A stretch of DNA of 64,000 bases, taken from contig JANXEU010000007.1 of the NCBI GenBank assembly GCA_025058055.1, positions 379 through 64,378 on the forward strand, read 5' to 3'. Shown one piece after another: positions 7,058-64,000 of the stretch (the stretch's first letter is position 1; every line of letters starts with the position of its first letter). Position numbers and translations under genes: made by a program. The DNA comes from Candidatus Calditenuaceae archaeon. GTDB lineage: Archaea > Thermoproteota > Nitrososphaeria_A > Caldarchaeales > Calditenuaceae. Under the pieces are notes generated by a model. That model worked only from the letters and a program-made list of their open reading frames with translations. It searched no databases and was not told where the DNA came from.

Positions 7058-7285
7058 ATGCTGAATATATCCGTATTTCGCAAGTTTCGTCGAGCCACGA
7101 GGCTCCCAAGGCTACCGCTCGGTCATCAAGCGACAAGTAGATATACGATCGGCTGTAATAATGGAAGGACTAATGACGAGGTTTGGTCTGGTATTGCCGA
7201 ACATAAATTTTGAAGAGGAGGGCCGGTTCTTTGATCTCGGGTCACTCGCGTTCTATCACCCCTACAGAATTGAGGTGCGTTTGTG

Positions 7286-13632: not shown

Positions 13633-14322
13633 CTACGGAGCCATTGGGAATTCCTGCACACCTTTCTCCCTGAAGACCTTCTCGAAACCGTAGATCTCGT
13701 ATGAAGTCTTGCCTTGGTCGTAGAGCCTCCTGCTCTCCCTCTCCCTCTCCTCCCTCTGCTTGGCTCGCTGCAAAACTTCCGCCGCTATCTCCCGAGGTAC
13801 AACCACTACACCGTCGTCGTCACCTACTATCACATCACCAGGTTTCACTAGGACTCCGCCGCAGATGACAGGCACGTTGATTGAACCCGGGTGCATCTTC
13901 GAGGACCCAATCGGGGAGACGTGTCGCGCGAACACTGGAAAACCCATCCTCCGGATCTCGGCAACATCTCTAACCGAACCGTCAACGACCACGCCGGCGA
14001 TGCCTTGACGCTTCGCCTGATAGCTCATCAAACCTCCCCACATGACGCCTAGAAGTCCGCTAGCGGCGATCACGATGACGTCACCTGGCTTGGCGAGGGC
14101 CATTGCTCTGTGCACCGTAACGTTGTCTGCGGGGTAACTGTTCACAGTGAGGGCAGGTCCAACCAGCTTAACGTCTTGTGCTATAGGCTTGATCTCAGGG
14201 TCCATAACGCACCTGTATTCCTTACTGATCGACTCGTAAACTGTTGAAGCCCCGAGGTCTTTGAAAGCATCTATTATCTCCCTCGGTAACTTAGGAAAAT
14301 CCCTGTAGACTATCGAGGTCAT
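13633..14322 (-). CDS. RraA-family protein / class II HMG-CHA aldolase-like (4-hydroxy-4-methyl-2-oxoglutarate aldolase family)
   Basis: ~229 aa from ATG 14322 (MTSIVYRDFPKLPREIIDAFKDL...). The ORF track starts at GTG 14343. RraA fold motifs are present (GDVIVIAASG...GGLMS...GIAGVVVDGSVRD..GDVIVGDDDGVVVVP), plus a ~60 aa C-terminal extension as in ProA/LigK-type aldolases. Confidence 0.7.
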   Translation of the reverse strand: MTSIVYRDFPKLPREIIDAFKDLGASTVYESISKEYRCVMDPEIKPIAQDVKLVGPALTVNSYPADNVTVHRAMALAKPGDVIVIAASGLLGVMWGGLMSYQAKRQGIAGVVVDGSVRDVAEIRRMGFPVFARHVSPIGSSKMHPGSINVPVICGGVLVKPGDVIVGDDDGVVVVPREIAAEVLQRAKQREERERESRRLYDQGKTSYEIYGFEKVFREKGVQEFPMAP

Positions 14323-14381
14323 CCTTATCCCGGAGGATGCCACCTGCTAATATATCTGATTCGCGTCTGTTTGAGAACGGT

Positions 14382-23148: not shown

Positions 23149-23856
23149 TTACTTACTCCGCTGCAACTGGAAGTACCTGTATTGTTGACGGGCCTCCCTG
23201 AGCGTCTTGCCGGACCTCACGGACTCGATGATCATCCTCTCCGCCTCTTCGATCTCCTTCGCGTCCCTGAGGACCTCACTCGCCCTCTCTTTGGGAACGC
23301 GGAGAAGCCCTGTGTCGTCGCCAACGATGATGTCGCCCGGCATGATCAGGACTCCGCCTGCCTGTACAGCCACGTTTATCCCATCTATCTGGAGCCGGTC
23401 CTTTCCGGTCCTAGGAATGGTACCTCTCGCGAAGATAGGATATCTGAATCTTAGTATGTTATCGTAATCTCTGAAGACGCCGTCTATCACGGTCCCCGCG
23501 ATCCCCAATTTCATCGCGGTAAAGGTCAGAATGTCTCCCCAACAGGTGTAGCTGGTCACGCCGCCGTTGTCAATCACGATAACGTCACCGGGTTGAGCGA
23601 GATCGAAAAGGTAGTCTCCGATGTCCTCCTTAGTTCCCTGCTCGGCTGGTGAGAGAGGGACGTACCTGACGGTTATGGCAGGGCCTGCGATCCTGACGCC
23701 TTGTACCATCGGACGTATGCCCTCTATTACTCCGCTGATCCTAGTGCGCTCCAATGAGTCAGATATGTTTGGTGTCGAAAGTTCCTTGAAAGCATCGACG
23801 ACGTCCCTTGAAGGTCTGCTCACCTCCTTAACCACAACGGGGTTATAATCACCCAT
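23149..23856 (-). CDS. RraA-family / HMG-CHA aldolase-like protein (paralog 2)
   Basis: MGDYNPVVVKEVSRPSRDVVDAFKEL...GDVIVIDNGG...GIAGTVIDGVFRD...GDIIVGDDTGLLRVP plus a C-terminal extension. The ORF track starts at GTG 23865. Confidence 0.7.
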   Translation of the reverse strand: MGDYNPVVVKEVSRPSRDVVDAFKELSTPNISDSLERTRISGVIEGIRPMVQGVRIAGPAITVRYVPLSPAEQGTKEDIGDYLFDLAQPGDVIVIDNGGVTSYTCWGDILTFTAMKLGIAGTVIDGVFRDYDNILRFRYPIFARGTIPRTGKDRLQIDGINVAVQAGGVLIMPGDIIVGDDTGLLRVPKERASEVLRDAKEIEEAERMIIESVRSGKTLREARQQYRYFQLQRSK

Positions 23857-23962
23857 CTCGTCCACACTCTCAAAGTCAGATTATTAAAAATGCTTGCTGC
23901 TGTTGTCGCAGAGTTAAAAGTTCTTGTCTGAGGGATAAATAGAACCTTGGCGATCCGAACTC

Positions 23963-24637
23963 ATGGTCTCGAGAAAGGTCGTGGACGAATTCGCGAAAAT
24001 TCCCACCTCAAACGTCTCCGACGCCCTCGACAGGTTCAGGATAAAGGGTGGGCTCGAGGACATTTCACCGATCGTGGACAACGTGAGAATCGCAGGTACG
24101 GCGTTCACGGTGAGGTTCGTTCCAGCCAATCAGGTAGAGTTGAAGCCCTGGGTCACGTACATAGACAAGGCCCAGCCTGGCGACGTGGTAGTGATCGATA
24201 ACGGCGGTAGGAAATATTGCACCGTTTGGGGAGGTCTTCTGTCCGCGAGAGCAAAGGACATGGGACTGAGGGGGACGGTGATCGACGGAGTCTGCAGGGA
24301 CATCGACGTTATCAGGGCGATTCGGTACCCGGTCTTCAGCAGAGGTCGGTTCATGATGACCGGTAAGGACAGGGTGCAGCTCGCGGGCCTCAACGAGCCG
24401 ATAAACATCGCAAACGTCCTCATCAAACCTGGTGACGTGATCGTCGCGGACGACAGCGGCGTCGTGGTGGTACCGCAAGAGAAGGCTGAAGAGGTGCTGG
24501 AGGCGGCGCTGGAGATCTACGAGAAAGAATCGAAGATCCTAGAGGAGGTGAAGCGGGGCGTACCGTTATCGGAGGCTAGGGCGAAATACGGTTACGGGGA
24601 ATTGCAGCGCCCCAAAGGCTTAACGCAATCGAAATAG
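23963..24637 (+). CDS. RraA-family / HMG-CHA aldolase-like protein (paralog 3)
   Basis: MVSRKVVDEFAKIPTSNVSDALDRF...GDVVVIDNGG...GLRGTVIDGVCRD...GDVIVADDSGVVVVP. It is divergent from paralog 2 and immediately upstream of the third Mo-hydroxylase. Confidence 0.7.
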   Translation: MVSRKVVDEFAKIPTSNVSDALDRFRIKGGLEDISPIVDNVRIAGTAFTVRFVPANQVELKPWVTYIDKAQPGDVVVIDNGGRKYCTVWGGLLSARAKDMGLRGTVIDGVCRDIDVIRAIRYPVFSRGRFMMTGKDRVQLAGLNEPINIANVLIKPGDVIVADDSGVVVVPQEKAEEVLEAALEIYEKESKILEEVKRGVPLSEARAKYGYGELQRPKGLTQSK

Positions 24638-24664: not shown

Positions 24665-27106
24665 TTGGAGTCCTTACCACCCGAAACGGTTCATAATTTA
24701 TCACGCAAAATAACAACAAGATGGATAGGCAGCCCAGTTAAAAGAAAGGAAGATCTCCGGTTCATAACAGGGAAGGGTCTATTCGTGGACGATTTCAGAT
24801 TCGATAACTGCCTCTATGTCGCATTCGTCAGAGGTAAGGTTGCTCATGCGAAGATAAGACACATAGAGACAGATAAAGCGTCCAGAGTGCGTGGGGTTGT
24901 GAAGGTTCTCACCGGCGAAGAGGTCGCCGATCTCGTCAAACCTTGGCCCCATCTAATTCCAACACCACCTTATTATGGAATCGCTGTTGATAAGATAAGA
25001 TATCAAGGCGAACCTGTGGCTATGGTAATAGCAGAAAGCAAATACGCTGCATGGGACGCGGCAGAGGCGATTGAAGTCTATTGCGAAGGGCTGCGGCCCT
25101 TGGTGACGATCGATGAGGCTTTATCACTCGATGCTCCCCTGATTCACGAGGGGTTCCCACGAAACGTTGCGTGGGAGAAGAAGTTCATTTACGGAGACGT
25201 TGATGGCGACTTCTCAAGGGCCGATAGGGTGGCAAGAGGAAGATACTATTATCACAGGTTCATATCCGCACCTCTGGAACCAACCGCGCTCGCCGCTGTC
25301 TACGATAGACATTCCGGACACCTGACCATCTACGACCAACACCAGCAGGCTCCGATGTATCACGCCAGATACTCCAGGGTGTTAGGCATACCGTCGAACA
25401 GAATTCGCATCAGAGTACCTGACCTAGGAGGAGGATTCGGAAACAAGCAGAGCGTCTACCCATACAGCGCACTAATCGGACTGGCAGCCTTGATAACGGG
25501 AAGACCAGTCAAATTCGTAGCTTCACGATCAGAGGACTTTCAAGCATTGATGCACTCCCCTGATAGATTGGCAAAAGTCGAAGCGGCCTACAAGCTCAAC
25601 GGTGAGGTAATTTCGGTGAGGATGAAGATCTATGACAACTTCGGCGCCTATCTCAGACATCCTGAACCCCATAACGTGACAAGGGCGTTCCCATCGATTG
25701 TCGGTCCTTACAGAATAAAGTCGATCGAGATTGACGCAACAGGGGTGTTCACCAACACCTGCCCGACCGGTCCCAACAGGGGGTACGGACAACAACACGC
25801 TAGCTTCTGCCTTGAGCGCATCATCGACAAGGTGGCTGAGGAGCTCGGATTGGATCCCGTTGAGCTCCGGACGGTCAATTTGATTAGGCGAAACCAGATG
25901 CCCTACGAGACACCCGTTGGATCAGTCTACGACGACGGCGATTACGCAGCAGCGTTGAGTTACGCACTAGAGCTAGCGGAATACGAACAACTCAAGCGAG
26001 AGCGGGAGAAGATGAGAGGAAACGGTGACTTGATGGGGTTGGGCGTTGCCACGATAGTGGAGGGAGGTGCGACCGCCTTCGGGTTCGCTAGGTTGTGGGG
26101 CGGGGATCCGGCCCATGTAGCGGGATATGCCTCCATGGCCGAGTCAGCGTCCGTTAGAGTTCACCCCGACGGGTCAATAACTGTCGCCATGGGAACAGTG
26201 CCACAGGGTCAAGGCCATGAAACCTCTGCTGCACAGATAGTCGCTGATGTTCTGGGCGTCACTCCCGACGACGTGACGGTGATTCCAGGCTTCGATAGCG
26301 ACACGCATCCCTACAGCGCCGCGGGATCAGGCACCTATGCAAGCAGGTTCTCCCAAATAGCAGTAGGCGCGCTGGTCGGAGCCTCACTGCGAATCCGAGA
26401 GAAGGTGTTACACATCGCCGCTCACAAGTTAGAGGCTAACCCTGCAGACTTGGAGATGAGGGACGGCATGATCTACATAAGGGGAAATCAGGAGCGGTTC
26501 ACGACCTTCAGAGAGATAGCTCGAATCGCGCACACCAGATTGGCCGATCTACCTCCGAACACAGAGGCCGGTCTGGATGCGTATTACACCTACCACTTCC
26601 CCTACAGCAAATCGGTCGGTGACGACCTGAGAGGGAACCTCTGTGGGTCATACGCTTTCTTAGCAGGCGTCGCGGCGGTGGTGATCGATAAGGAGACTGG
26701 CGCGGTAGATCTCAGGAGGTTGGTGGTAGTGCACGACTCCGGCAGGGCGTTGAACCCCATGATCCTCGAAGGACAACTGCACGGGGCCGTTGTCAACGGC
26801 ATCGGGGGTGCTCTTCTTGAGGGGTTCGAATATGATCAAGAAGGCAACCTTCTGACTTCAACTTTCGCGGATTATCTGCCTATATCGGCGACCGAGGTAC
26901 CCGAGCTCAGGTTCGGCCACATGGAGACCTCATCTCCTTTCACCCCGTTAGGCGCGAAAGGCAGCGGTGAGGGAGGAACCATATTGGTGCCGGTGCTGAT
27001 TGCCAATGCAATCAACGACGCCCTCAAACCATTAGGAGTCGAGATAACCACGTCGAGACTGACGCCATTCAACGTTTGGCGTTTCATGACCGGAAAAGGC
27101 CTCTGA
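24665..27106 (+). CDS. Molybdopterin-dependent hydroxylase large subunit (XDH/CoxL family), third paralog
   Basis: 813 aa with loop TGPNRGYGQQHASFCLERIID. It lies 27 nt downstream of the RraA-like gene and upstream of two hydrolases. Confidence 0.8.
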   Translation: MESLPPETVHNLSRKITTRWIGSPVKRKEDLRFITGKGLFVDDFRFDNCLYVAFVRGKVAHAKIRHIETDKASRVRGVVKVLTGEEVADLVKPWPHLIPTPPYYGIAVDKIRYQGEPVAMVIAESKYAAWDAAEAIEVYCEGLRPLVTIDEALSLDAPLIHEGFPRNVAWEKKFIYGDVDGDFSRADRVARGRYYYHRFISAPLEPTALAAVYDRHSGHLTIYDQHQQAPMYHARYSRVLGIPSNRIRIRVPDLGGGFGNKQSVYPYSALIGLAALITGRPVKFVASRSEDFQALMHSPDRLAKVEAAYKLNGEVISVRMKIYDNFGAYLRHPEPHNVTRAFPSIVGPYRIKSIEIDATGVFTNTCPTGPNRGYGQQHASFCLERIIDKVAEELGLDPVELRTVNLIRRNQMPYETPVGSVYDDGDYAAALSYALELAEYEQLKREREKMRGNGDLMGLGVATIVEGGATAFGFARLWGGDPAHVAGYASMAESASVRVHPDGSITVAMGTVPQGQGHETSAAQIVADVLGVTPDDVTVIPGFDSDTHPYSAAGSGTYASRFSQIAVGALVGASLRIREKVLHIAAHKLEANPADLEMRDGMIYIRGNQERFTTFREIARIAHTRLADLPPNTEAGLDAYYTYHFPYSKSVGDDLRGNLCGSYAFLAGVAAVVIDKETGAVDLRRLVVVHDSGRALNPMILEGQLHGAVVNGIGGALLEGFEYDQEGNLLTSTFADYLPISATEVPELRFGHMETSSPFTPLGAKGSGEGGTILVPVLIANAINDALKPLGVEITTSRLTPFNVWRFMTGKGL

Positions 27107-37913: not shown

Positions 37914-38444
37914 TCAACTAGCTCTCAAGAGGCCGACTATGTGGGGGAGCTCCTCGGAGATGAGCTCGGCAGCCAGCCTTGCACCATCCGGGGAACCCGG
38001 AAATGCTAATACAACACAGCCCATGACGATTCCGGCGGTGGCCCTGCTTAGCATCGCAGCGGCACCTATCCTCCTGAAGCTCTCGATCCTAAGGACCTCT
38101 CCAAACCCCGGCAACTCCTTCTCAAAGAGCGGCCTCAGAGCCTCGACGGTGACGTCCTTCCTAGCGACCCCAGTACCCCCTATCACGATGAAGACGTCAC
38201 AACCTTCTCCGATGCCCTTGAGCACGGCTTCACGTATCTGCTTGACGTCGTCGTCAACGACTCCGTACCTCAATACAGAGTGACCCTTTCGATCGAGCAC
38301 CTCCGTCACCGCATCGCCCGAGTCGTCGACTACCTTATCGCCGCGCTGGAGAGCCTCGTACCGCGAGGTGCTAGCAGTCACGACACCGATCTTGATGGTC
38401 TTTGGTGCCCTTTCCCTATGCTCCTTAACAGCACCGGTGCCCAT
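37914..38444 (-). CDS. moaB: MoaB/MogA-family molybdopterin adenylyltransferase-like protein
   Basis: IGVVTASTSRYE...DDSGDAV..., GGTGVARKD and a GxxDG-like pattern of the MogA/MoaB fold. Confidence 0.7.
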   Translation of the reverse strand: MGTGAVKEHRERAPKTIKIGVVTASTSRYEALQRGDKVVDDSGDAVTEVLDRKGHSVLRYGVVDDDVKQIREAVLKGIGEGCDVFIVIGGTGVARKDVTVEALRPLFEKELPGFGEVLRIESFRRIGAAAMLSRATAGIVMGCVVLAFPGSPDGARLAAELISEELPHIVGLLRAS

Positions 38445-38468
38445 GTCTTGATGGCCACGAACTCTCTA

Positions 38469-39413
38469 TTAATTCCGAGCCCGTCTTATCTGCTCGGCGA
38501 ATTCAATCACCTCGCCTGCAAGCCTCTTAGCGACCTCGCGCGAGGTCATTATCGTGTCCGTGACCAAAACCTCGATACCGAACCTCGACTTGAGAGAGTG
38601 TGCCTGATCGGAATCGATCCTGTCGATCACCAGACCCTCAATGAGGCCGTCGAAGAACTCAGCTACTCCGAGTACGCCCTTCTCGTACCCGTAGGCCTCG
38701 AGGAGTTTGTCCGCGGGCCCTCTGATAGCCTTACCTCCAACTATCGGGCTCACGGCGACCTTCACGGCTTCTGACAGCCTGATCTCTTCGATGACCCCTC
38801 GTGTCTCGAGTATGGGGTGAATGCTGAGGATGGGGTTACTGGGTGCGAAGACCATCGTCTCTGCGGACCTAAGTGCCTCAACGACGCCAGGCGCCGGATG
38901 CTCGGACGGCGACCTCTCCCACCTGACATCGATTACTCGGGGCTCGGTCCGACGTTTCACGAAGTACTCCTGAAAAGTCATGGGGCCCTCATCCGTGACT
39001 ACGACGCTTACGACCCTGTAATCGGTCATGGGCAACACTCTACATCTCAATCCTAACCTCCTCGAGATCACCTCGGTTGCCTCCGTGAGGCTGAACCCCT
39101 CGGCGAGCATCTTGTTCCTCATCAGGTTGACGGCCATGTCAGAGTCGCCGATCTTGAACCAGTTCTCGAAACCCAACACCCCAATCATCTCGTTGCACCT
39201 GAAGGTGTCGCCCTTTATTCCCCAGCCCCTCTCCCAGTCGCCGATGCCGGAGAGAGCGTAAATGACGGTGTCGATGTCCGGGGAAACGTGGAGCCCGTAT
39301 ATCACCTCGTCGTCAGCGGTATTCACGATCACCACCAGCGCCTCGCCCAAGAGGTCGTAGAGACCGGCTGCAAGCCTCGACCCACCGACTCCTCCGGAGA
39401 ACAGAACCATCAA
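38469..39413 (-). CDS. cofD: 2-phospho-L-lactate transferase (CofD family; F420 biosynthesis)
   Basis: VLFSGGVGGSRL, VIVNTADDEVIYGLHVSPDIDTVIYALSGI..GWGIKGDTF, FKIGDSDMA, FQEYFVKRRT, APSNPILSIHPIL and AVSPIVGGKAIRGPADKLL closely track the archaeal CofD sequence. Confidence 0.85.
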   Translation of the reverse strand: MMVLFSGGVGGSRLAAGLYDLLGEALVVIVNTADDEVIYGLHVSPDIDTVIYALSGIGDWERGWGIKGDTFRCNEMIGVLGFENWFKIGDSDMAVNLMRNKMLAEGFSLTEATEVISRRLGLRCRVLPMTDYRVVSVVVTDEGPMTFQEYFVKRRTEPRVIDVRWERSPSEHPAPGVVEALRSAETMVFAPSNPILSIHPILETRGVIEEIRLSEAVKVAVSPIVGGKAIRGPADKLLEAYGYEKGVLGVAEFFDGLIEGLVIDRIDSDQAHSLKSRFGIEVLVTDTIMTSREVAKRLAGEVIEFAEQIRRARN

Positions 39414-40051
39414 AGAGGATTACCCCACTTATCCATGAACGCTATCTCGCTCAACGGCCTCCTTCTGGGTGGCCTCTCTCCGCCGGGGGACCCGATCTCG
39501 ATCAGGGCCTGTGGCTCCACGTCCTCAGGTACGTTCAGCACCCTTCTGACGGCCTCCGGTGCAAAAAGCGGCCCGCTCCTCCAACAGGCACCAAGCCCCA
39601 ACGCGTGCAGCGCAAGTAGGAGGTTCTGAATGAAGGCCGCGACCGATTGGACGGCCATCAAGTACTCGAACCTCCTCCTTCGCTCATCGGGATACACGTC
39701 CATGTCGTCCATGGTGAGACAGACTACCAACAGCGCCGAGGCCCTTAAAGTCCTCTTCACGGACTCCCTCACGATCGTCTCGATCCTCCACTCCGGGTGG
39801 CCGTCTGCTCTGAGGTCACTCCTCCAGACCATCGCCATCTCCTCGAGCAGTTTAACGATGAGGGGCCTGTCTTTCACTATCACCACCCTCCAAGGTTGCG
39901 CGTTGTGGGCGCTGGGTGCACAGGACGCGACCTCCAACGCAGCGACTATCAGCTCAGTCGGAACTTCAACCTCTCTGAGAAGCTTCGAGGATCTCCTCGA
40001 CTTGATCAGATCCAATAGCTTCAACTTCTCCGGGGAGATCTGCTGCACCAT
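39410..40051 (-). CDS. Nitroreductase-family flavoprotein (FbiB-C-terminal-like or BluB-like)
   Basis: LLDLIKSRRSSKLL...HNAQPWRVVIV is the nitroreductase N-terminal signature. Its stop overlaps the cofD start (ATGA). The ORF track's start at 40108 would overlap the upstream gene; ATG 40051 (MVQQISPEKLKLLDLIKSRRS) is preferred. Confidence 0.6.
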   Translation of the reverse strand: MVQQISPEKLKLLDLIKSRRSSKLLREVEVPTELIVAALEVASCAPSAHNAQPWRVVIVKDRPLIVKLLEEMAMVWRSDLRADGHPEWRIETIVRESVKRTLRASALLVVCLTMDDMDVYPDERRRRFEYLMAVQSVAAFIQNLLLALHALGLGACWRSGPLFAPEAVRRVLNVPEDVEPQALIEIGSPGGERPPRRRPLSEIAFMDKWGNPL

Positions 40052-40088
40052 CACGAGTGCTTCCAAAGGGCCGGTGATATCCTTCGCT

Positions 40089-40730
40089 CTACAACGATCT
40101 CGCCACAAGCTCCGCTACTCGAAGGTCTTCAAGCGTGTTCACGTTGATCGCTAGGCGCGGTTCCTCCACCGTCACGAAGAAGGGATCCGAGAGCACCTCA
40201 CCGACCGGTACAGCTCCATACCTTATCATCCTGATACCTGTGGGGAAATAATGCTTGCCTTCATGGCTGAAACGTGTTACACTTCTGAGCGGAACTCCCA
40301 CCGACTTGGCGAGATGCTCGCTGACAACAACCACCACGTAGTTCCTGTCGGCCAAGTCGCCTGCGCTGTGACGCACCAGCAAACCATCGATCACCTGTGG
40401 AACGAGAAACGGGACGTCCGCGGAGAAGGTCACGTAGAGACCCGGCCCCAGCTTCTCGAGAGCCGCCTTGAGGTCTTCATAGTATCCGAGCCCTGCAGCC
40501 ACCAAGACGTCGTAGCCTACCTGCCGAAGGAAACTCGTCGTCTTGGGTGTGTTCGTGCTGGTGACGCATATTAGGCCCTTGAGCCCTCTCACTCCAATCA
40601 AACGGTCTAGAACGTGTTCGATCATCATCTTGCCAGCCAACTCCATCAGCGGCTTCTCGGTCGCGGTGCCCATCCTCGTCCCCTTGCCGCCGGCCATGAG
40701 AAGGCCAATGTGCGTCGGAGAGGGGTACAT
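40089..40730 (-). CDS. cobY: CobY-like GTP:adenosylcobinamide-phosphate guanylyltransferase / MobA-like NTP-transferase
   Basis: IGLLMAGGKGTRMGTATEKPLMELAGKMMIEHV...ICVTSTNTPKTTSFL...GLGYYEDL closely parallels archaeal CobY (ALIMAGGKGTRMG..EKPLIKL...ATSPNTPKT...GKGYIEDL). Confidence 0.65.
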   Translation of the reverse strand: MYPSPTHIGLLMAGGKGTRMGTATEKPLMELAGKMMIEHVLDRLIGVRGLKGLICVTSTNTPKTTSFLRQVGYDVLVAAGLGYYEDLKAALEKLGPGLYVTFSADVPFLVPQVIDGLLVRHSAGDLADRNYVVVVVSEHLAKSVGVPLRSVTRFSHEGKHYFPTGIRMIRYGAVPVGEVLSDPFFVTVEEPRLAINVNTLEDLRVAELVARSL

Positions 40731-46579: not shown

Positions 46580-46646
46580 GAAATAGGTATTTTATCAGGT
46601 AACATCGAACCGAATTGACGACCTGTTGGTGGCTAAACAGAGGACG

Positions 46647-48542
46647 ATGAGGGACGTTCCCTGGGGGACGGGCCCGGTGCCTCTGGAGGAGAGGGAAGAA
46701 CGCGACTGGTGGAGGAAGCTCTTCAACGACGTGTATCTGCTAACAGACGGCGATGTCGTCTGCAACAGGCGGCTGACCGAGTACGAGGTCGATATCGTAA
46801 TCGATCTCCTCGATTTGGACAAGGATGACCCGCTGCTGGATCTCTGCTGTGGAAACGGTAGACACTCCCTCGAGCTTGCGAGGCGGGGCTTCAGGAAGGT
46901 TTACGGGCTTGACTACTCGCAAACCCTCCTAAACGTCGCGAGGGACTCTGCACTCAGCGAGGGCCTTCTCGTCGACTTCCGGCAAGGAGACGCGAGGCGC
47001 CTGCCTTACGAGGACAACGCTTTCAACGCCGTCATAATGATGGGAAACAGCTTCGGTTACTTCAGGGATGAGGCTGACAACATTAGAGTGCTGAGGGAGG
47101 TTCACCGAGTCCTACGACCCTACGGCAGGCTGCTGATGGACTTGACTGACGCAGAGTGCTTCCGAAATACTTTCGAACCTGTAAGAGCTGAGGTTCACGA
47201 CCACACGCTCGTCGTTAGGTTGAGGGAGCTCTCGAGGGACCGTAGTAGGTTCTTCACACGAGAGATCGTCATCTCGGGTGATGCGATCGTAGCGGATCAG
47301 GTCTACGGCATCAGGCTTTACACGTTCGACGAGCTGAAGCGACTCTTGAGAGAGGCGGGATTCGTGAACGTCGCTCTTAGGACCAAACTCACCTACAATC
47401 CAGTCGATAAGGACCCCGGAATGATGGGCTCGAGGATGGTCGTTACAGCTCTGGCATCTAAAGAACCGAAGAACACAGGGAACAAACCGCTGATAGTGGT
47501 CCTTCTGGGCGATCCGAGAAGGCCGCATCCCGTTAAACCGGGATTCAGGTTCGACGAGGACGACGTTCACGCGGTAAACGAACTCAGGTCTGCTCTGCAC
47601 GGCATCGGAGACTACACGTACGCGTTCCTGGACGACCACTCAAAGATGCTACACTTCTTGATGGAGAAGAGGAACTCGATTCACATGGTCCTTAACCTCT
47701 GCGACGACGGCTTCTTCAACGATCCCTACAAGGAGGGACACGTGGCTGCGGTTCTGGACGTATTAGACGTGAGGTACACCGGAGCCGGACCCGCATGTCT
47801 CAGCATTTGCTACGACAAGTCCGCGGTGAAGGCCGTTGCCCGATCGATGGGCATTCCCGTTCCATATCACTTGGTGGTCAACAGCGTTAGGGAACTGCGT
47901 TCCGTGTCGACCCGACTTCTGCCGGCAGTAGTGAAGCCGAACTACGGGGACAACAGCTGGGGCATAACCAGTGAGAGCCTCGTTAAGACCACGGAAGAGC
48001 TCGTGAACGCCTTCAGGTCCCTCCGAGAGGAGTGGAAATACTCGGGCCCAGTGATCGTTGAGAAGTTCATAGAAGGTGACGACCTGACGGTCTCGATGAT
48101 CGGAAACCCACCGAACCTAATCTTCTTACCGGTCCTCAAGGAGGATTACTCCCAACTCCCCGCCGGGCTACCGCGAATTTTGACGTACGACGCGAAGTGG
48201 AACCCCAACTCTCCCTACTGGCGAGTCAATTCCGTTCCGGCACACCTGGACGACGGCCTCCGGGCTAAGCTACTCAAGTGGAGCGAGAAGCTCTTCGTGA
48301 GGTTGGGATGCAGAGACTACGCGCGGTTTGACTGGAGGCTTGGTAGCGACGGAGTTCCGAGGTTGCTCGAGGCCAACCCTAACCCCGGTTGGGTGTGGGA
48401 CGGCCACCTCCGCAAGGCTTGCAAGCACGCTGGGTGGACCTATGAGAGGATGTTCAAAGAGATCATCAGAGCTGCGGAGAAGAGATACGCGTTAAAGAAC
48501 CAAAACGGCAACGAGTTCAAGCATCTGTACCCCTCAACTTGA
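46647..48542 (+). CDS. Fusion protein: class I SAM-dependent methyltransferase (N-terminal) + D-alanine-D-alanine-ligase-like ATP-grasp domain (C-terminal)
   Basis: N-terminal half: motif I VIDLLDLDKDDPLLDLCCGNGRHSLELARRG plus the post-I acidic and motif II/III pattern. C-terminal ~330 aa: Ddl-like pre-ATP-grasp (LIVVLLGDPR...DYTYAFLDD) and ATP-grasp (LPAVVKPNYGDNSWGI..., VIVEKFIEGDDLTVSMIGN, RFDWRLGSDGVPRLLEANPNPG). The ORF track starts at TTG 46626. Confidence 0.7.
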   Translation: MRDVPWGTGPVPLEEREERDWWRKLFNDVYLLTDGDVVCNRRLTEYEVDIVIDLLDLDKDDPLLDLCCGNGRHSLELARRGFRKVYGLDYSQTLLNVARDSALSEGLLVDFRQGDARRLPYEDNAFNAVIMMGNSFGYFRDEADNIRVLREVHRVLRPYGRLLMDLTDAECFRNTFEPVRAEVHDHTLVVRLRELSRDRSRFFTREIVISGDAIVADQVYGIRLYTFDELKRLLREAGFVNVALRTKLTYNPVDKDPGMMGSRMVVTALASKEPKNTGNKPLIVVLLGDPRRPHPVKPGFRFDEDDVHAVNELRSALHGIGDYTYAFLDDHSKMLHFLMEKRNSIHMVLNLCDDGFFNDPYKEGHVAAVLDVLDVRYTGAGPACLSICYDKSAVKAVARSMGIPVPYHLVVNSVRELRSVSTRLLPAVVKPNYGDNSWGITSESLVKTTEELVNAFRSLREEWKYSGPVIVEKFIEGDDLTVSMIGNPPNLIFLPVLKEDYSQLPAGLPRILTYDAKWNPNSPYWRVNSVPAHLDDGLRAKLLKWSEKLFVRLGCRDYARFDWRLGSDGVPRLLEANPNPGWVWDGHLRKACKHAGWTYERMFKEIIRAAEKRYALKNQNGNEFKHLYPST

Positions 48543-49727: not shown

Positions 49728-51119
49728 TCACGCTGACGGGTAACAGAAACTGTCCGAGCTCGAGTCGCCGCCCTCGAGCCTCACCTGATGGGCCTTCGCT
49801 TGGCCGAAATCAACGAAGAACCTGTCATCGACCGAAAGTTGCCCACCCTCAGAGTTGAGCTTAACCAACCATCCGTAAAGTCCCTCGGGATAGAATATCG
49901 GATCCCACGAGCTGTAAAGCGAGTTGGTCACATACACCCTCCTACCGTCTCTGCTCACCTCTACCATCTGCGGCGCACCGGTAAGTCTCCTTCCTGACGG
50001 ATGATCTGCTCTGTGAACTATTCCACCCAGCTTCGCTATCGACTTGAGCTTGGGCTCGAAGGGGTTGCTTACGTCGTAGCATCTCAGCTCTCCCGTACCC
50101 CAGCAGGAGACGTAGAGGTATCTATCGTCAACTGAGAGAACTATATCGGTCACCAATGGTGGAACGGCTCCGAAGGGCTTCAGGACGCCAGGCAAAAGGT
50201 TCTCTTCTAGCGGAACGGCCTCTATTTCGATCACCTTGCTCACATCCCAGCGGTTATCCTCCTTGTGCCAGAGCCAGATGCTGGAGCTTAGGTCCTTAAC
50301 GCTGATGACGACGTTCGCGAACCCCATCAACTTGGTGGGCTCGTGAAAAGGTCTCAACTCGAGCACCATCCGCTGCTCCTTCCCAAGCTCGATCGATTTT
50401 AGATGCTTCCTTTTCCTGAGGTCCCAGAAGTGAATCCTGTTACCGTAAAGGCCTTTGACAAGCGCGTCTAAGTCGAGCCCGTTCTCGAAGTACTTGGGGA
50501 CGGTCCACTCACTGGATATCATGACCTCTTCTGTGAGGTGCCACCAGAAATCGTAAGCCAAGTACTGGTCTCCCCGGTCGATCTCGAACCTTCCAAGTGG
50601 CTCGAGGGTCCTGTGGTCGAGCAACAAAACGCCTCCCGGACCTTCGTCACCAGTGCCGCCTAGACCGCTGAGGTAGACCGCATCCGGTCCACAATGTACG
50701 GTGTGAATTCTCGAGTATCCGCTGACCTCTCTTATCCTCTCACCTCTGATCTTCTTGACGAGCGTAGGCCTACGCGGATCTGGTTTCGTGTCAATCACGT
50801 AGACGTTCGAGGACCTCAACCCAGGCACTATCAGATACCGTCTCTCTAAAGTGGGGTCGCCATAGGGGCACAGCATGGAGCTACAGGCGTTCCATCCGAA
50901 GTGGTGAAGCTCGTCCCCGATCTCGGGAAGCTCTACCCTGTGTAAGATCTGGCTGTAGGTATCAGATTTCGGATCAACGTCTACGACGGCCAGGAAGTCC
51001 GGCTTCTGCAGACCTGTGCCAGTGTAAAGCCCGGCGACATACGCTATCGTCTCAGGAGGGCCTCTAACCGCCTCTCTCGGCGTCGGGTAAAAAGTCTGGT
51101 CGGGTTTGAGCCTGCTCAC
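49728..51119 (-). CDS. Selenium-binding protein family (SBP56 / methanethiol oxidase-like)
   Basis: 463 aa. FYPTPREAVRGPPETIAYVAGLYTGTG...DFLAVVDVDPKSDTYSQILHRVELPEIGDELHHFGWNACSS closely matches the SBP56 N-terminus. The start is GTG. Confidence 0.85.
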   Translation of the reverse strand: MSRLKPDQTFYPTPREAVRGPPETIAYVAGLYTGTGLQKPDFLAVVDVDPKSDTYSQILHRVELPEIGDELHHFGWNACSSMLCPYGDPTLERRYLIVPGLRSSNVYVIDTKPDPRRPTLVKKIRGERIREVSGYSRIHTVHCGPDAVYLSGLGGTGDEGPGGVLLLDHRTLEPLGRFEIDRGDQYLAYDFWWHLTEEVMISSEWTVPKYFENGLDLDALVKGLYGNRIHFWDLRKRKHLKSIELGKEQRMVLELRPFHEPTKLMGFANVVISVKDLSSSIWLWHKEDNRWDVSKVIEIEAVPLEENLLPGVLKPFGAVPPLVTDIVLSVDDRYLYVSCWGTGELRCYDVSNPFEPKLKSIAKLGGIVHRADHPSGRRLTGAPQMVEVSRDGRRVYVTNSLYSSWDPIFYPEGLYGWLVKLNSEGGQLSVDDRFFVDFGQAKAHQVRLEGGDSSSDSFCYPSA

Positions 51120-53243: not shown

Positions 53244-54815
53244 GTGGGCAATTGGGATACAAATGACGCACTAGAGTATCACGAGAACACCAAGCACAGC
53301 TACGTATCCGTTAGGCTGCGAGGGCGAGGTCTGGACTGGGAGAACATGCCTTACCCCTTCAAAGTTTACCCTGATGCACCTAGGGTCGAGCTTCCCAGTT
53401 CCTTTCCCTCACCAACCGCCACCCTCTTCGAGGCGCTGCGCCGTCCTGAATCGCGAACGCTCCGAGAGATCGAGCTGCCGCTGATCGCGGAGCTCCTCTT
53501 CTATAGTGCCGGCATCACCAGAATTAAGGACTACGGATGGGGAAGGGTCTACTTCAGGGCGGCAGCTGCCACAGGCAACCTCCACGAGACTGAGCTCTAC
53601 TTAGTCGTGGGTGGTGGAGGAGATCTGGAACCCGGAGTTTACCACTTCGATCCTTGTGAGTTCTGCCTGTCGCAGATCAGAAGAGGTGATTACAGGCAGC
53701 GCTTGGCTAGGTCTACGCGCTCGGCCGAAGTGCTGGAATCCGGCCTGACGGTCGTTCTCAGCTCCGTGGCGTGGAGGAACGCTTGGAAGTACGGCCCGAG
53801 GTCCTACAGACACTGGTTCTGGGACGGTGGCGCTCTATGCGCGAACCTGCTGGCCGTCTCGAGGGCCGAGGGTCTCGAGCCAGAGGTCCTGATGGGGTTC
53901 GTAGACGAGGAGGTCAACGCTCTGATCGGCGCCGAGCAGCCTAGGGAGGCGGCGATAGCAGTCGTGGCCCTGAAGGGGCTCGAGTCGAGCCACCCGGGCT
54001 CGAGCCCGTCCACCGACCCAATTCGGTACCGGCCGATGCCCTACTCGAGGCGCGAGGTCCAGTATAGAGAGATCGCTGAGGCCCACGCATCCTCCTGCCT
54101 CCGCGACGCCGACGAGGTGGCGAGGTGGAGGGACGGTGCCGGGCGGCTGAGGCCGACCAGCGACCTTGAGCCCCCTGCGGCCAGCTGGCTGTGGGCCGAC
54201 CTGCGCCCCCTACCGCTCGGCGAAGCGATCCTGTTACGGGGCTCGGCGAGGAGGTTCACCCAGACACCAATACGCGGCGAGGTGCTACGCGCCGTGACGT
54301 GGGCGATGTGCGCCCCGATCGAGGCTGACTTCGTCCCGAGAGGACTGACGACGCTGCTGGAGCGGTTCGCGATCGTGAACGCGGTCGATGGACTCGATCC
54401 AGGCTCCTACCTTCATGAGCGCGGGAGCCTCGAGCTCCGCCTCCTTAAGCCTGGGAACTTCAGGAGGGTAGCGGGGTACCTCTGCTTGGAGCAGGGCCTG
54501 GGGAGCGACGCCTCGGTCGTCTTCTTCCTGATGGCGAGGCTCGGGGAGGTCCTCGGACACATGGGCAACAGGGGCTACAGGGCGGTCCAGTTCGAGGCGG
54601 GGGTCAGGGTCGGACTGGCGTACCTAGTCGCGTACTCGCTGGGGATCGGCGCGACCGGGCTGACGTTCTACGACGACGTCCGGGAGTTCTTCGCGCCTGC
54701 CTCGGACGGCATGGAGAACATGATGGTGGTGGCGCTTGGGAACCCGTCCTACAGGTCCAGGCCCGGCAGGATTCACGTCCGGGAGTGCAGGCACCCGGCC
54801 TTTAGGAGGTCGTGA
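53244..54815 (+). CDS. Tandem-domain SagB-type dehydrogenase (nitroreductase superfamily; McbC/SagB-like)
   Basis: The N-terminal EYHENTKHSY is the SagB-domain hallmark. A second nitroreductase-like domain begins around LLRGSARRFTQTPI. This gene, especially its 3' half, is visibly more GC- and CpG-rich than the surrounding DNA. Confidence 0.7.
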   Translation: MGNWDTNDALEYHENTKHSYVSVRLRGRGLDWENMPYPFKVYPDAPRVELPSSFPSPTATLFEALRRPESRTLREIELPLIAELLFYSAGITRIKDYGWGRVYFRAAAATGNLHETELYLVVGGGGDLEPGVYHFDPCEFCLSQIRRGDYRQRLARSTRSAEVLESGLTVVLSSVAWRNAWKYGPRSYRHWFWDGGALCANLLAVSRAEGLEPEVLMGFVDEEVNALIGAEQPREAAIAVVALKGLESSHPGSSPSTDPIRYRPMPYSRREVQYREIAEAHASSCLRDADEVARWRDGAGRLRPTSDLEPPAASWLWADLRPLPLGEAILLRGSARRFTQTPIRGEVLRAVTWAMCAPIEADFVPRGLTTLLERFAIVNAVDGLDPGSYLHERGSLELRLLKPGNFRRVAGYLCLEQGLGSDASVVFFLMARLGEVLGHMGNRGYRAVQFEAGVRVGLAYLVAYSLGIGATGLTFYDDVREFFAPASDGMENMMVVALGNPSYRSRPGRIHVRECRHPAFRRS

Positions 54816-59832: not shown

Positions 59833-60423
59833 TCACAGTTTGAGCCTGTTCACCAAGCTCCTTGCCAACTCCAGCTCCTCCGGCGAATCTACGTCCATCA
59901 GCTCCAGAGGGTCGACCTCGACGGCAACGGCCGACCCGATGTGACGCATCACCACCCTCTTTGCTCCCTCGTCGCCTTCTAGGGCCATCAAGTCCTTGAA
60001 GTACCTCGAGCTGAAGGCCACCGGGCTGCGAACCTCCCCAGCGACTGCGCAGTAAGCTATCCCTTCCCCACAGGCCTTCACCAACTTGTTCAGCGTTTCG
60101 GACCTCACGAAGGGCATGTCGCCGGGACAGATGATCACACCTTCAGCCCTCGCCATCACCGCTTCAACCCCCTTCCTTATGCTCGAGGACATCCCTGATG
60201 ACCAATCCGAGTTCAGGACCACCTCCACGCCCTTCGGCAGAACGCTCCGGACCCGTTCAGCCATGTAGCCGAGCACGACCACGACGGGACTGCATTCAGA
60301 GCCAAGAGCCGCCTCGACAACCCTCCTCACCACCTCCTTCCCCCCGACCTCTTCGACCAGCTTGAACCCTCCCCTCATCCTAATCGAGGCACCCGCACCG
60401 AGAACAATGGCCGCGAACCTCAT
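59833..60423 (-). CDS. MobA/MocA-like molybdenum cofactor nucleotidyltransferase (likely molybdopterin cytidylyl- or guanylyl-transferase)
   Basis: FAAIVLGAGASIRMRGG-KL (the GxGxSxRMG loop of MobA/MocA) and a C-terminal ...CPGDMPFV. The ORF track starts at TTG 60438; ATG 60423 is preferred. Confidence 0.65.
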   Translation of the reverse strand: MRFAAIVLGAGASIRMRGGFKLVEEVGGKEVVRRVVEAALGSECSPVVVVLGYMAERVRSVLPKGVEVVLNSDWSSGMSSSIRKGVEAVMARAEGVIICPGDMPFVRSETLNKLVKACGEGIAYCAVAGEVRSPVAFSSRYFKDLMALEGDEGAKRVVMRHIGSAVAVEVDPLELMDVDSPEELELARSLVNRLKL

Positions 60424-60462
60424 TCCATTTTCACCCAACTCAACGTAACATTCTTATACCAT

Positions 60463-63515: not shown

Positions 63516-64000
63516 ATGAGGGTCGTCTCTTTGGTTCCCAGCGTCACCGAAAGCCTTTACGCTCTGGGGATGCATGACGAAGTAGTCGGCATAACCTATG
63601 CTTGCCCTAACCCCGAGCCCAATCACCACAGGAGGGTAGTTGTAAGGCCTGTGCTGAATACCGAGAACATGGGCCAGCTCGAGATCGATAATGCGGTGAG
63701 GGAACACCTAGCGGCACGTAAGCCTCTTTACGAGATTGACTATGAAGCCATTCTCAACCTCAGGCCCGATTTGATAGTGGTTCAGGACCTGTGCCACGTC
63801 TGCGCCGTAACCCCTTCGCAGGTCCAGGTCGAGGGCCTTCCGAGGACGATCGCTGTCGCGCCGAAGACGGTGAACGAGTCCCTTCAGTCGATCCTCGAGT
63901 TGGCTAGGCTCGTGGGGAGGGAGGCGGAGGGCAAGGAACTGGTTGAACGATTGAGAATGAGGCTCGATTTGGTGCGGGACTTGGTCTCGGGGCTCGAGGT
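63516..64000 (+). CDS. Periplasmic-binding-protein type 2 (BtuF/FepB-like cobalamin/siderophore-binding) protein, 3'-truncated by window edge
   Basis: From ATG 63516, preceded by a GGTGAGGAGG Shine-Dalgarno-like element, the frame reads MRVVSLVPSVTESLYALGMHDEVVGITYAC... (the PF01497 LxPSxTExLxxLG motif) through ...IVVQDL to the window end. It is absent from the ORF track because no in-window stop exists. Confidence 0.6.
   Translation, partial: MRVVSLVPSVTESLYALGMHDEVVGITYACPNPEPNHHRRVVVRPVLNTENMGQLEIDNAVREHLAARKPLYEIDYEAILNLRPDLIVVQDLCHVCAVTPSQVQVEGLPRTIAVAPKTVNESLQSILELARLVGREAEGKELVERLRMRLDLVRDLVSGLE

Follow-up and report, generated by a model that had tools for sequence, protein, structure and literature searches.

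The window, by which we mean the whole 64-kb stretch of DNA that was analysed, comes from a Candidatus Calditenuaceae archaeon (Caldarchaeales, formerly Aigarchaeota), a hot-spring archaeon. An earlier note on this DNA had proposed an operon of four cofactor genes encoding a CobY-like nucleotidyltransferase (NTP transferase), a nitroreductase (NTR), CofD and MoaB. We found all four open reading frames on the minus strand, with the extents proposed there (Table 1). A TATA-like element was located within the 113-nt divergent intergenic region that separates the NTP-transferase gene from a TBP gene on the other side. It is a putative promoter, from which the operon transcript would be leaderless or have a short leader.

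Table 1. Genes and other features of the locus, with positions counted from the first letter of the window
Feature	Positions	Strand	Models and remarks
CobY-like NTP transferase, 213 aa	40089-40730	-	PF12804; TIGR00454; NF045495
FbiB-C-terminal-type nitroreductase ('FbiE'-like), 213 aa from ATG 40051	39410-40051	-	PF00881; TIGR03553
Nitroreductase, alternative longer ORF from TTG 40108	39410-40108	-	
CofD (2-phospho-L-lactate / enolpyruvyl transferase)	38469-39413	-	PF01933 153.8 bits; TIGR01819 290.3 bits
MoaB-type molybdopterin-binding protein (MoCF_biosynth)	37914-38444	-	PF00994 97 bits; TIGR00177 112.4 bits
TATA-like element TTTAAAA	40758-40764	-	read from sequence; 28-34 nt upstream of NTP-transferase ATG

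The overlapping arrangement that had been described holds for the nitroreductase and CofD but probably not for the NTP transferase and the nitroreductase. The CofD start overlaps the nitroreductase stop codon. With TTG 39413 as that start the two genes share 4 nt, and with ATG 39410 they share 1 nt; the junction reads TTGATG, however, and not the literal ATGA claimed for it. Between the NTP-transferase stop codon (40089-40091) and ATG 40051 there are 37 nt. This ATG is most likely the nitroreductase start, giving 213 aa as in relatives, and the two genes would overlap in the window only with TTG 40108 as start. In relatives they overlap by 4 nt. The gap between CofD and MoaB was measured at 24 nt rather than 25 nt, and the two are probably co-transcribed. 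CofD is as clear as had been stated, passing the TIGR01819 cutoff of 257.45 bits, and MoaB also scored above its TIGR00177 cutoff (85.35 bits).

Among NCBIfam models the NTP transferase scored best on TIGR00454, with 99.6 bits, and on NF045495, a CobY model, with 71.6 bits. Both scores fall under the curated cutoffs (174.7 and 250, respectively), as do those of the other members of the CobY-like clade. A cobS-linked control, P0009, also failed both (144 and 119.5 bits), so these cutoffs are strict for this phylum. On TIGR00454 the CobY-like clade was placed below cobS-linked homologues (99.6 versus 144 bits). The CofC models PF01983 and TIGR03552 gave no match to the window protein at E<=0.01, and members of its clade reached at most 24 bits (cutoff 105) in a comparison where the CofCs of neighbouring lineages scored 125-166 bits. 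In a PDB sequence search the closest match was M. jannaschii CobY (E 3e-14), with no CofC/FbiD structure at E<1. The AF2 model of the protein (pLDDT 92) had CobY 3RSB as its top Foldseek match (TMt 0.83), and CofC/FbiD structures were absent from its top 50 fold matches. Profile, structure-database and fold comparisons thus all uphold the suggestion that this enzyme is kin to CobY rather than to CofC. In the tree, CobS-linked CobYs including that of M. jannaschii formed a clade with 89% bootstrap, with the cofD-linked proteins outside it; monophyly of the two cofD-linked subclades received 57% NJ bootstrap.

Residues R13, K19, G26, K/R27, G153, T180 and D183 of MjCobY contact GTP or are conserved (PMC4626045). 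In the NTP transferase R13, K19, G26 and R27 are kept as R19, K26, G33 and K34, while G153, T180 and D183 are kept as G165, T199 and D202; G8, G79 and N177 also have equivalents (G14, G82, N196). In its residues for GTP binding and in its predicted fold the protein thus agrees with M. jannaschii CobY. Several other positions are changed. The Asn that is invariant in cobS-linked CobYs (98%; N155 equivalent) is replaced by R/K167 in 8/8 clade members, and the invariant Asp (90%; D158 equivalent) by R/H170, again in 8/8. These positions follow the catalytic Gly, and the window protein has Arg at both. An invariant Lys (100%; K126 equivalent) is replaced by Leu, Val or Glu, and a Tyr (98%; Y121 equivalent) by His or Ser. 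In an hhalign comparison the 167/170 segment corresponded to FGxxSxxxH of CofC, a stretch in which G163 and S166 of FbiD bind the PEP carboxylate (PMC6450877); the placing of R167 and R170 here follows from that correspondence. FbiD also has a Mg/phosphate motif of three aspartates, D116, D188 and D190 (PMC6450877). In the NTP transferase the first of these is kept (D105) and the D-x-D position reads N196-x-N198, as in CobY. The CobY-like clade keeps N-x-N where CofC/FbiD have D-x-D and so has not converged on the metal site of CofC, a point against its having taken over from CofC.

For the nitroreductase, the best NCBIfam model was the FbiB C-terminal model TIGR03553 (127.9 bits, under the cutoff of 249.55), which is presumably tuned to fused actinobacterial FbiB proteins; the score against PRK13294 was 129.7 bits. 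The best PDB match was the C-terminal domain of Mtb FbiB (4XOM; E 1.5e-24, 37% identity over 180 aa), the next nitroreductase following at 3e-14. P289 and M372 line the methylene pocket of FbiB (PMC6450877). These two residues alone were compared: in the 213-aa nitroreductase M372 is conserved as Met132 and P289 corresponds to Ala48. The gene is also coupled to F420 genes, overlapping cofD in the window and having orthologues in NTR-CofD-CofC(-CofE) clusters of other archaea. The profile score, the PDB match and these CofC-linked orthologues support the proposal that the nitroreductase is an FbiB-C-type enzyme which would reduce dehydro-F420-0, implying the PEP route, and we infer this activity for it. 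Stand-alone 'FbiE' homologues have already been predicted in archaea, according to the statement in PMC8498797 that cites Braga et al. 2020. A BluB-like enzyme, the other suggestion made for this gene, did not gain support. The score on TIGR02476 was 64.9 bits against a cutoff of 150, about half the FbiB-C score, the BluB structure 2ISJ was a weak PDB match (E 4.7e-7), and the orthologues adjoin CofD, CofC and CofE.

The CobY-like gene, the nitroreductase and CofD also occurred together elsewhere in Caldarchaeales, on at least seven further contigs and with two sets of flanks (loci L001/L006, L002/L008, L003, L007, L010, L011, L012/13 and L014/15). A scan of genomes with an alignment of the CobY-like clade gave three species representatives. 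Every recovered CobY-like locus had the nitroreductase and CofD directly downstream. MoaB follows CofD in window-type loci and is missing in L012-L015, which are flanked by Rieske/cytochrome b upstream and by peptidase M19 or a racemase downstream. Since L012-L015 keep the trio amid other flanks, the trio is a conserved unit; MoaB is a passenger outside this F420 unit. Neither the window nor any of the trio loci contained CobS, CobT or another cob gene.

Distant CobYs, taken from among the matches listed in a metagenome scan, were used as controls. CobS was found within 3 kb in 74/80 of these metagenomic loci, and neither nitroreductase nor CofD lay beside the control CobY in any of the 80. 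With the nitroreductase-CofD pair at all CobY-like loci and at 0/80 controls, the gene arrangement is not due to chance. Clustering with cob genes in relatives, which the earlier note had raised as a point against its reading, was observed for distant homologues (29-38% identity) but not for the protein's own clade. An orthologous NTR-CofD pair followed by a CofC passing TIGR03552 was found in Caldarchaeum (L016), Nitrososphaerales (L017, with CofE alongside) and Nezhaarchaeales (L018). In an NJ tree of the nitroreductases, the seven CobY-like-linked ones fell within one clade of 23, which held none of the six CofC-linked ones. Two related lineages (L099, L100) carry NTR-CofD without any adjoining guanylyltransferase, so a cofC may lie outside such a cluster. 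The genomes that bear the trio are all rather closely related, and the independent observations are therefore few. Both points weigh against the reading that CofC has been replaced, as does the 57% bootstrap for the cofD-linked subclades.

The absence of CofC from the locus was confirmed, none being found within the 64-kb window. Beyond the locus no cofC was found in searches that were partial rather than genome-wide. A word-indexed search with Caldarchaeum CofC returned 9 matches, all from Caldarchaeum where named and none from Calditenuaceae. When 1.84 billion representatives were searched in full with a HMMER profile, 8860 matches of the CofC family emerged, and among the best 10 new ones none was labelled Calditenuaceae. 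Indirect linking of CofC clusters connected four to contigs with a CofC-type NTR and none to a contig that bears the trio, contigs of 1.55 and 1.39 Mb among these. On this basis cofC is presumed absent from the genome, but a divergent or unlinked copy may exist, which counts against its displacement.

The comparisons establish the gene identities and families, the conserved linkage and a complementary pattern of CofC versus CobY-like genes. The membership in the CobY family, the NTR-CofD linkage and the presence of CofC in sister lineages support the idea that the CobY-like enzyme replaces CofC. We consider it somewhat probable that a CobY paralogue non-orthologously displaced CofC in the F420 side-chain operon, where it would feed a dehydro-F420 route completed by a stand-alone reductase. 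GTP would be held by the conserved CobY-type glycine-rich loop, and GMP would be transferred to the phosphate of phosphoenolpyruvate (or 2-phospho-L-lactate), the substrates that we propose, yielding EPPG (or LPPG). This step would be the phospho-anhydride chemistry that CobY performs on adenosylcobinamide phosphate. CofD would then transfer the activated moiety to Fo, giving dehydro-F420-0, which the stand-alone FbiB-C-type nitroreductase would convert to F420-0 with FMNH2. CofE, encoded elsewhere, would add glutamate, and MoaB would be co-transcribed only. We found no description of the CobY-for-CofC swap in the literature; the reductase part has already been predicted there. We are evenly divided on the wider claim that the 'CofC' step of Calditenuaceae arose independently from CobY with its own GTP loop and, together with an FbiE-type reductase, makes up a fully PEP-dependent archaeal route. 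The step would then have originated twice, the second time by recruitment from the cobamide nucleotide-loop pathway, whose chemistry is analogous.

Cobalamin salvage has been reported in a published analysis of a Calditenuis genome (PMC4681859). Such salvage would need a CobY activity, which counts against displacement and would suit an ordinary CobY for cobamide salvage, with incidental F420 neighbours and with a canonical cofC at another site in the genome serving F420. CobY is the top match by family, by sequence and by fold, the NxN motif and the residues for GTP binding are retained, and cofC can be unlinked from NTR-CofD. We nevertheless judge this unlikely. The clade scores far under the CobY cutoffs and under cobS-linked homologues (99.6 versus 144 bits), lies outside the clade that joins M. 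jannaschii and environmental CobYs, and has replaced the equivalents of the CobY-invariant N155 and D158. NTR-CofD invariably follows it directly, in two flank contexts, and it never adjoins cobS, compared with 74/80 control CobYs (among the matches listed); no Calditenuaceae CofC was found in partial searches. Guanylylation of AdoCbi-P and of PEP/2-PL is the same chemistry. A bifunctional enzyme for both, as the sole CobY/CofC-type enzyme of the genome, would be compatible with this, with the retained CobY core and with F420 linkage alongside the cobalamin salvage reported in the family (PMC4681859). It is an improbable solution, as there are no cob genes in the window or at any trio locus and the loss of CobS-linked-invariant residues favours a changed rather than a widened substrate.

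CofC homologues of altered specificity yield 3PG-F420 (PMC8764529), and the CobY-like clade has a substrate site that resembles neither that of CobY nor that of CofC. Another phospho-acid (e.g. 3-phospho-D-glycerate) might be activated, giving a modified F420 side chain and leaving the nitroreductase with another role. We think this quite improbable, since the nitroreductase is closest to FbiB-C and orthologous to those of NTR-CofD-CofC-CofE clusters, which fits a PEP-derived dehydro intermediate, whereas formation of 3PG-F420 requires no reduction (PMC8764529). A MobA-type molybdenum-cofactor guanylyltransferase paired with MoaB, with CofD and the nitroreductase as unrelated neighbours, is highly improbable. 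MobA models do match the NTP transferase at 40-58 bits, and MoaB shares the transcription unit in window-type loci, but CobY-family models score about twice as high and MobA structures are far weaker (E about 3e-3). The scores, and the lack of MoaB in L012-L015 where NTR-CofD is always present, rule out this pairing as the main reading.

Predictions of F420 producers usually demand cofC/fbiD. If a CobY paralogue has indeed displaced CofC, they would rate lineages with such a substitute as incomplete, or its gene would wrongly be annotated as that of a cobamide enzyme. In a large F420 review, Aigarchaeota were not among the predicted producers and the phylum was named once, in passing. The displacement would also mean that the F420 phosphodiester and cobamide nucleotide-loop steps share chemistry and can swap enzymes. 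For the debate on 2-PL versus PEP (PMC6450877, PMC8764529), the tight coupling of FbiE and CofD in Nitrososphaerota and in further archaea is relevant. FbiD/CofC showed neither GTP binding nor activity without FbiA/CofD (PMC6450877). Heterologous F420 production might profit from a guanylyltransferase whose GTP site is intrinsic.

Among known systems, CobY (M. jannaschii MJ1117; PDB 3RSB/2MZB), the archaeal GTP:adenosylcobinamide-phosphate guanylyltransferase, shares with the NTP transferase its family, glycine-rich GTP loop, R19/K26, G165 and the N196-x-N198-T motif. By analogy, transfer of GMP to a phosphate would be expected of the window protein. The NTP transferase differs in scoring under the cutoffs, in lying outside the cobS-linked clade, in being linked to an FbiE-type NTR and CofD rather than to cobS/cobT, and in having Arg in place of the N and D after the catalytic Gly of CobY. 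CofC/FbiD (PDB 2I5E, 6BWG, 7P97), the 2-phospho-L-lactate / PEP guanylyltransferase of F420 biosynthesis, belongs with it to a common MobA-like superfamily (hhalign probability 93.6%). The CobY-like gene fills the operon context that CofC has in Caldarchaeum, Nitrososphaerales and Nezhaarchaeales, and the same reaction is proposed for it. Unlike CofC, the NTP transferase has a GGxGxRMG GTP loop and an NxN rather than a DxD Mg/phosphate motif, and its gene precedes the NTR instead of following CofD.

The C-terminal domain of M. tuberculosis FbiB (4XOM/4XOO/4XOQ) provides the best NCBIfam and PDB matches of the nitroreductase, with the M372 equivalent kept; the window enzyme differs in being archaeal, unfused to CofE, below the TIGR03553 cutoff and changed from P289 to Ala. 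It is stand-alone like the 'FbiE' dehydro-F420-0 reductases of Thermomicrobium roseum, which PMC8498797 relates from Braga et al. 2020, and its gene is directly coupled to cofD. In the canonical archaeal F420 cluster NTR-CofD-CofC(-CofE), as found in Nitrososphaerales and Nezhaarchaeales, an orthologous NTR and CofD follow each other in the same order and are tightly packed, but the window lacks the CofC after CofD and has an additional gene, of the CobY family, ahead of the NTR.

Four tightly spaced ORFs were read from the window sequence on the minus strand at 37914-40730, and family models agree with the gene order given in the earlier note: a CobY-like NTP transferase, a nitroreductase, CofD and MoaB. 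Starting the nitroreductase at ATG 40051 gives a 213-aa protein, the same size as in relatives, and leaves 37 nt after the NTP-transferase stop. The proposed nitroreductase/CofD overlap is present, but its sequence is TTGATG rather than ATGA, and it spans 4 nt or 1 nt depending on the start codon chosen; MoaB does follow CofD, one nucleotide closer than the 25 nt claimed. A TTTAAAA element lies 28-34 nt 5' of the operon's first ATG, in an intergenic region that also serves a divergent TBP gene. NCBI proteins MCS7094475.1 and MDW8186713.1 (Candidatus Calditenuaceae archaeon, 101-kb contig) match the nitroreductase at 100% identity; the Calditenuaceae are placed in Caldarchaeales, Nitrososphaerota.

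Window genes and clusters at homologous loci (NTR, nitroreductase; trio, CobY-like/NTR/CofD; L-prefixed coordinates refer to fetched loci)
Feature	Coordinates	Strand	Remarks
MobA-like NTP transferase, PF12804	40089-40730	-	213 aa
Nitroreductase-family protein	39410-40108	-	likely start ATG 40051
CofD	38469-39413	-	equivalog model 290.3 bits, cutoff 257.45
MoaB-type MoCF_biosynth protein	37914-38444	-	first codon 24 nt past CofD
Molybdopterin large subunit	7283-9535	+	family by Pfam
Molybdopterin large subunit	9569-11992	+	by eye from translation
Molybdopterin large subunit	24665-27106	+	by eye from translation
MocA-type molybdenum-cofactor cytidylyltransferase	59833-60438	-	TIGR03310 130 bits, below cutoff
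RraA-like paralogue	13633-14343	-	by eye
RraA-like paralogue	23149-23865	-	by eye
RraA-like paralogue	23963-24637	+	by eye
Methyltransferase/ATP-grasp fusion	46626-48542	+	638 aa
SBP56 selenium-binding-protein homologue	49728-51119	-	full-length, 616 bits
Weak nitroreductase-family match	53244-54815	+	523 aa; 33 bits, C-terminal half
Peripla_BP_2 binding protein	63516-63998	+	truncated by window end
Divergent trio			1.55-Mb contig, GCA_041641295.1
Divergent trio			673-kb contig, GCA_038868395.1
NTR-CofD-CofC	L016:5983-8137		Caldarchaeum sp.; same order
NTR-CofD-CofC	L017:6001-9142		Nitrososphaerales MAG; CofE alongside
NTR-CofD-CofC	L018:6001-8353		contig with NTR labelled Nezhaarchaeales by NCBI
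NTR-CofD only	L099:4001-5589		Aigarchaeota MAG GCA_033581295.1
NTR-CofD only	L100:4001-5571		JGI hot-spring contig

Among the other window genes, the three molybdopterin large subunits are paralogues of the xanthine-dehydrogenase/CO-dehydrogenase family, and with the MocA-type gene nearby they make the presence of MoaB in this region plausible. The RraA/demethylmenaquinone-methyltransferase-like paralogues lie among ABC-transporter, amidohydrolase and ring-cleavage genes (LigB, HpaB with flavin reductase), suggesting an aromatic or organic-acid catabolic island. The fusion, of unusual architecture, joins a SAM-methyltransferase domain to a C-terminal D-Ala-D-Ala-ligase-type ATP-grasp domain and is kept in three relatives (L001-L003); one of these (L002) also keeps the 523-aa protein, a SagB-type double domain by eye, next to a CBS-domain gene. 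A full-length SBP56 homologue is also encoded. The Peripla_BP_2 (cobalamin/siderophore-type) protein is the only possibly cobamide-related gene seen in the window.

The NTP transferase is CobY-like and not CofC-like, as proposed, by HMM, PDB sequence and fold matches alike. Its top NCBIfam models, both below cutoff, were the CobY-type TIGR00454 (99.6 bits, cutoff 174.7) and methanogen CobY NF045495 (71.6 bits, cutoff 250); MobA models scored about 40 bits and CofC models gave no match. The closest solved structures by sequence were M. jannaschii CobY 2MZB/3RSB (E 3e-14), while the CofC/FbiD entries 2I5E, 6BWG and 7P97, all part of the structure set searched, did not match at E<1. The AlphaFold model (pLDDT 92, pTM 0.90) had CobY 3RSB as its top fold match (TMt 0.83), and no CofC/FbiD structure was among the 50 best. 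Profile-profile comparison detected remote homology to CofC (probability 93.6%), as expected since both belong to the MobA-like superfamily.

For the nitroreductase, the leading models were FbiB C-terminal TIGR03553 (127.9 bits, below the cutoff of 249.55) and full-length FbiB PRK13294 (129.7 bits). BluB, the alternative suggested earlier, reached 64.9 bits and was abandoned. Among solved structures 4XOM, the FbiB C-terminal domain, came closest (E 1.5e-24, 37% identity over 180 residues; next nitroreductase 3e-14). M372, proposed to line the FbiB methylene pocket, is kept as Met and P289 is replaced by Ala (residue roles from PMC6450877). This likeness, with operonic coupling to cofD and elsewhere to cofC and cofE, supports the suggested role as a dehydro-F420-0 reductase. 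Such a role is not new in kind: PMC8498797, citing Braga et al. 2020, describes stand-alone reductases demonstrated in Thermomicrobia and notes "FbiE" homologues in archaeal genomes. The phosphoenolpyruvate (PEP)/dehydro-F420 reading differs from the position that 2-phospho-L-lactate is the starting compound in archaea (PMC8764529).

The trio was confirmed by local HMM scan in all fetched homologue loci of the CobY-like gene, and every NTP transferase in them scored best on TIGR00454/CobY, not CofC. Homologues 50-63% identical to the window protein show the full order including MoaB. The divergent trios (33-35% identity), found by way of the nitroreductase, sit between unrelated neighbours: Rieske/cytochrome b genes upstream and, on the downstream side, a peptidase M19 or alanine-racemase-like gene, with MoaB missing. 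MoaB, present in the window-type loci only, is a passenger that is probably co-transcribed. At 29-38% identity, distant homologues are ordinary CobYs: cobT-cobS-cobY is the order at the two loci inspected, and CobS lies within 3 kb in 74/80 metagenomic CobY loci, none of which carried a nitroreductase or CofD. In a NJ tree, CobS-linked proteins and M. jannaschii CobY formed one clade (89% bootstrap), with the cofD-linked proteins outside it in two subclades (joint monophyly 57%).

In other lineages the genes that come after orthologous nitroreductases (50-59% identity) are CofD and, behind it, a canonical CofC passing TIGR03552 at 125-166 bits. Bathyarchaeia also carry close nitroreductase homologues. 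Together with the compact nitroreductase-CofD-CofC operon shared by Caldarchaeum, Nitrososphaerales and the Nezhaarchaeales-labelled contig, this suggests that the PEP route is widespread in these archaeal lineages. In a NJ tree of 100-odd homologues, seven CobY-like-linked nitroreductases fell within one clade of 23 (63% bootstrap) that contained none of the six CofC-linked ones, a pattern that fits a single replacement inside Caldarchaeales. Across the 64-kb window, local HMM scanning found none of CofC, CofE, CobS and CobT. Two more lineages have the nitroreductase-CofD pair but lack an adjoining CofC or CobY-like gene; linkage of the guanylyltransferase gene is thus not obligatory, and its absence from a cluster alone permits limited inference. 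A word-indexed search with Caldarchaeum CofC yielded nine proteins; those that carried a name were all from Caldarchaeum, and none was labelled Calditenuaceae. A full profile search with HMMER across 1.84 billion representatives gave 8860 CofC-family hits; the top ten of those not seen before were again Caldarchaeum wherever a name was given, and four of these could be tied indirectly to contigs with CofC-type nitroreductases and none to trio-bearing contigs.

The linkage, the complementary CofC pattern and the residue changes described below make it reasonably probable that, in a clade centred on Calditenuaceae, a CobY paralogue has displaced CofC non-orthologously. As the earlier note had suggested, the CobY-like enzyme would stand in for CofC at the guanylyltransferase step and, together with CofD and the FbiE-type reductase, would provide a PEP-dependent route to F420-0. 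A literature search found no paper on a CobY-type enzyme in F420 biosynthesis. It is also possible that the protein is an ordinary or dual-role CobY, since the published Calditenuis analysis (PMC4681859) reports cobalamin salvage together with an F420 pathway.

The proposed displacement of CofC by the CobY paralogue can also be viewed at the residue level. M. jannaschii CobY residues that reportedly contact or respond to GTP (PMC4626045) are kept in the window protein, so guanylyltransferase activity is very likely retained. Near-invariant N (98%) and D (90%) of CobS-linked CobYs become R/K167 and R/H170 in the cofD-linked clade, while K126 and Y121, likewise nearly invariant in the CobS-linked proteins, become L/V/E and H/S (window numbering). 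By hhalign, G165-I-R167-M-I-R170 aligns with the CofC motif FGxxSxxxH, which in M. tuberculosis FbiD, the CofC counterpart, includes the PEP carboxylate binders G163 and S166 (PMC6450877). Two new arginines at this position would be expected if the substrate had changed from a bulky corrinoid to a small phospho-acid bearing a carboxylate. Where CofC/FbiD carry the Mg-binding D-x-D, the cofD-linked clade keeps the N-x-N of CobY, which counts against convergence on the CofC metal site.
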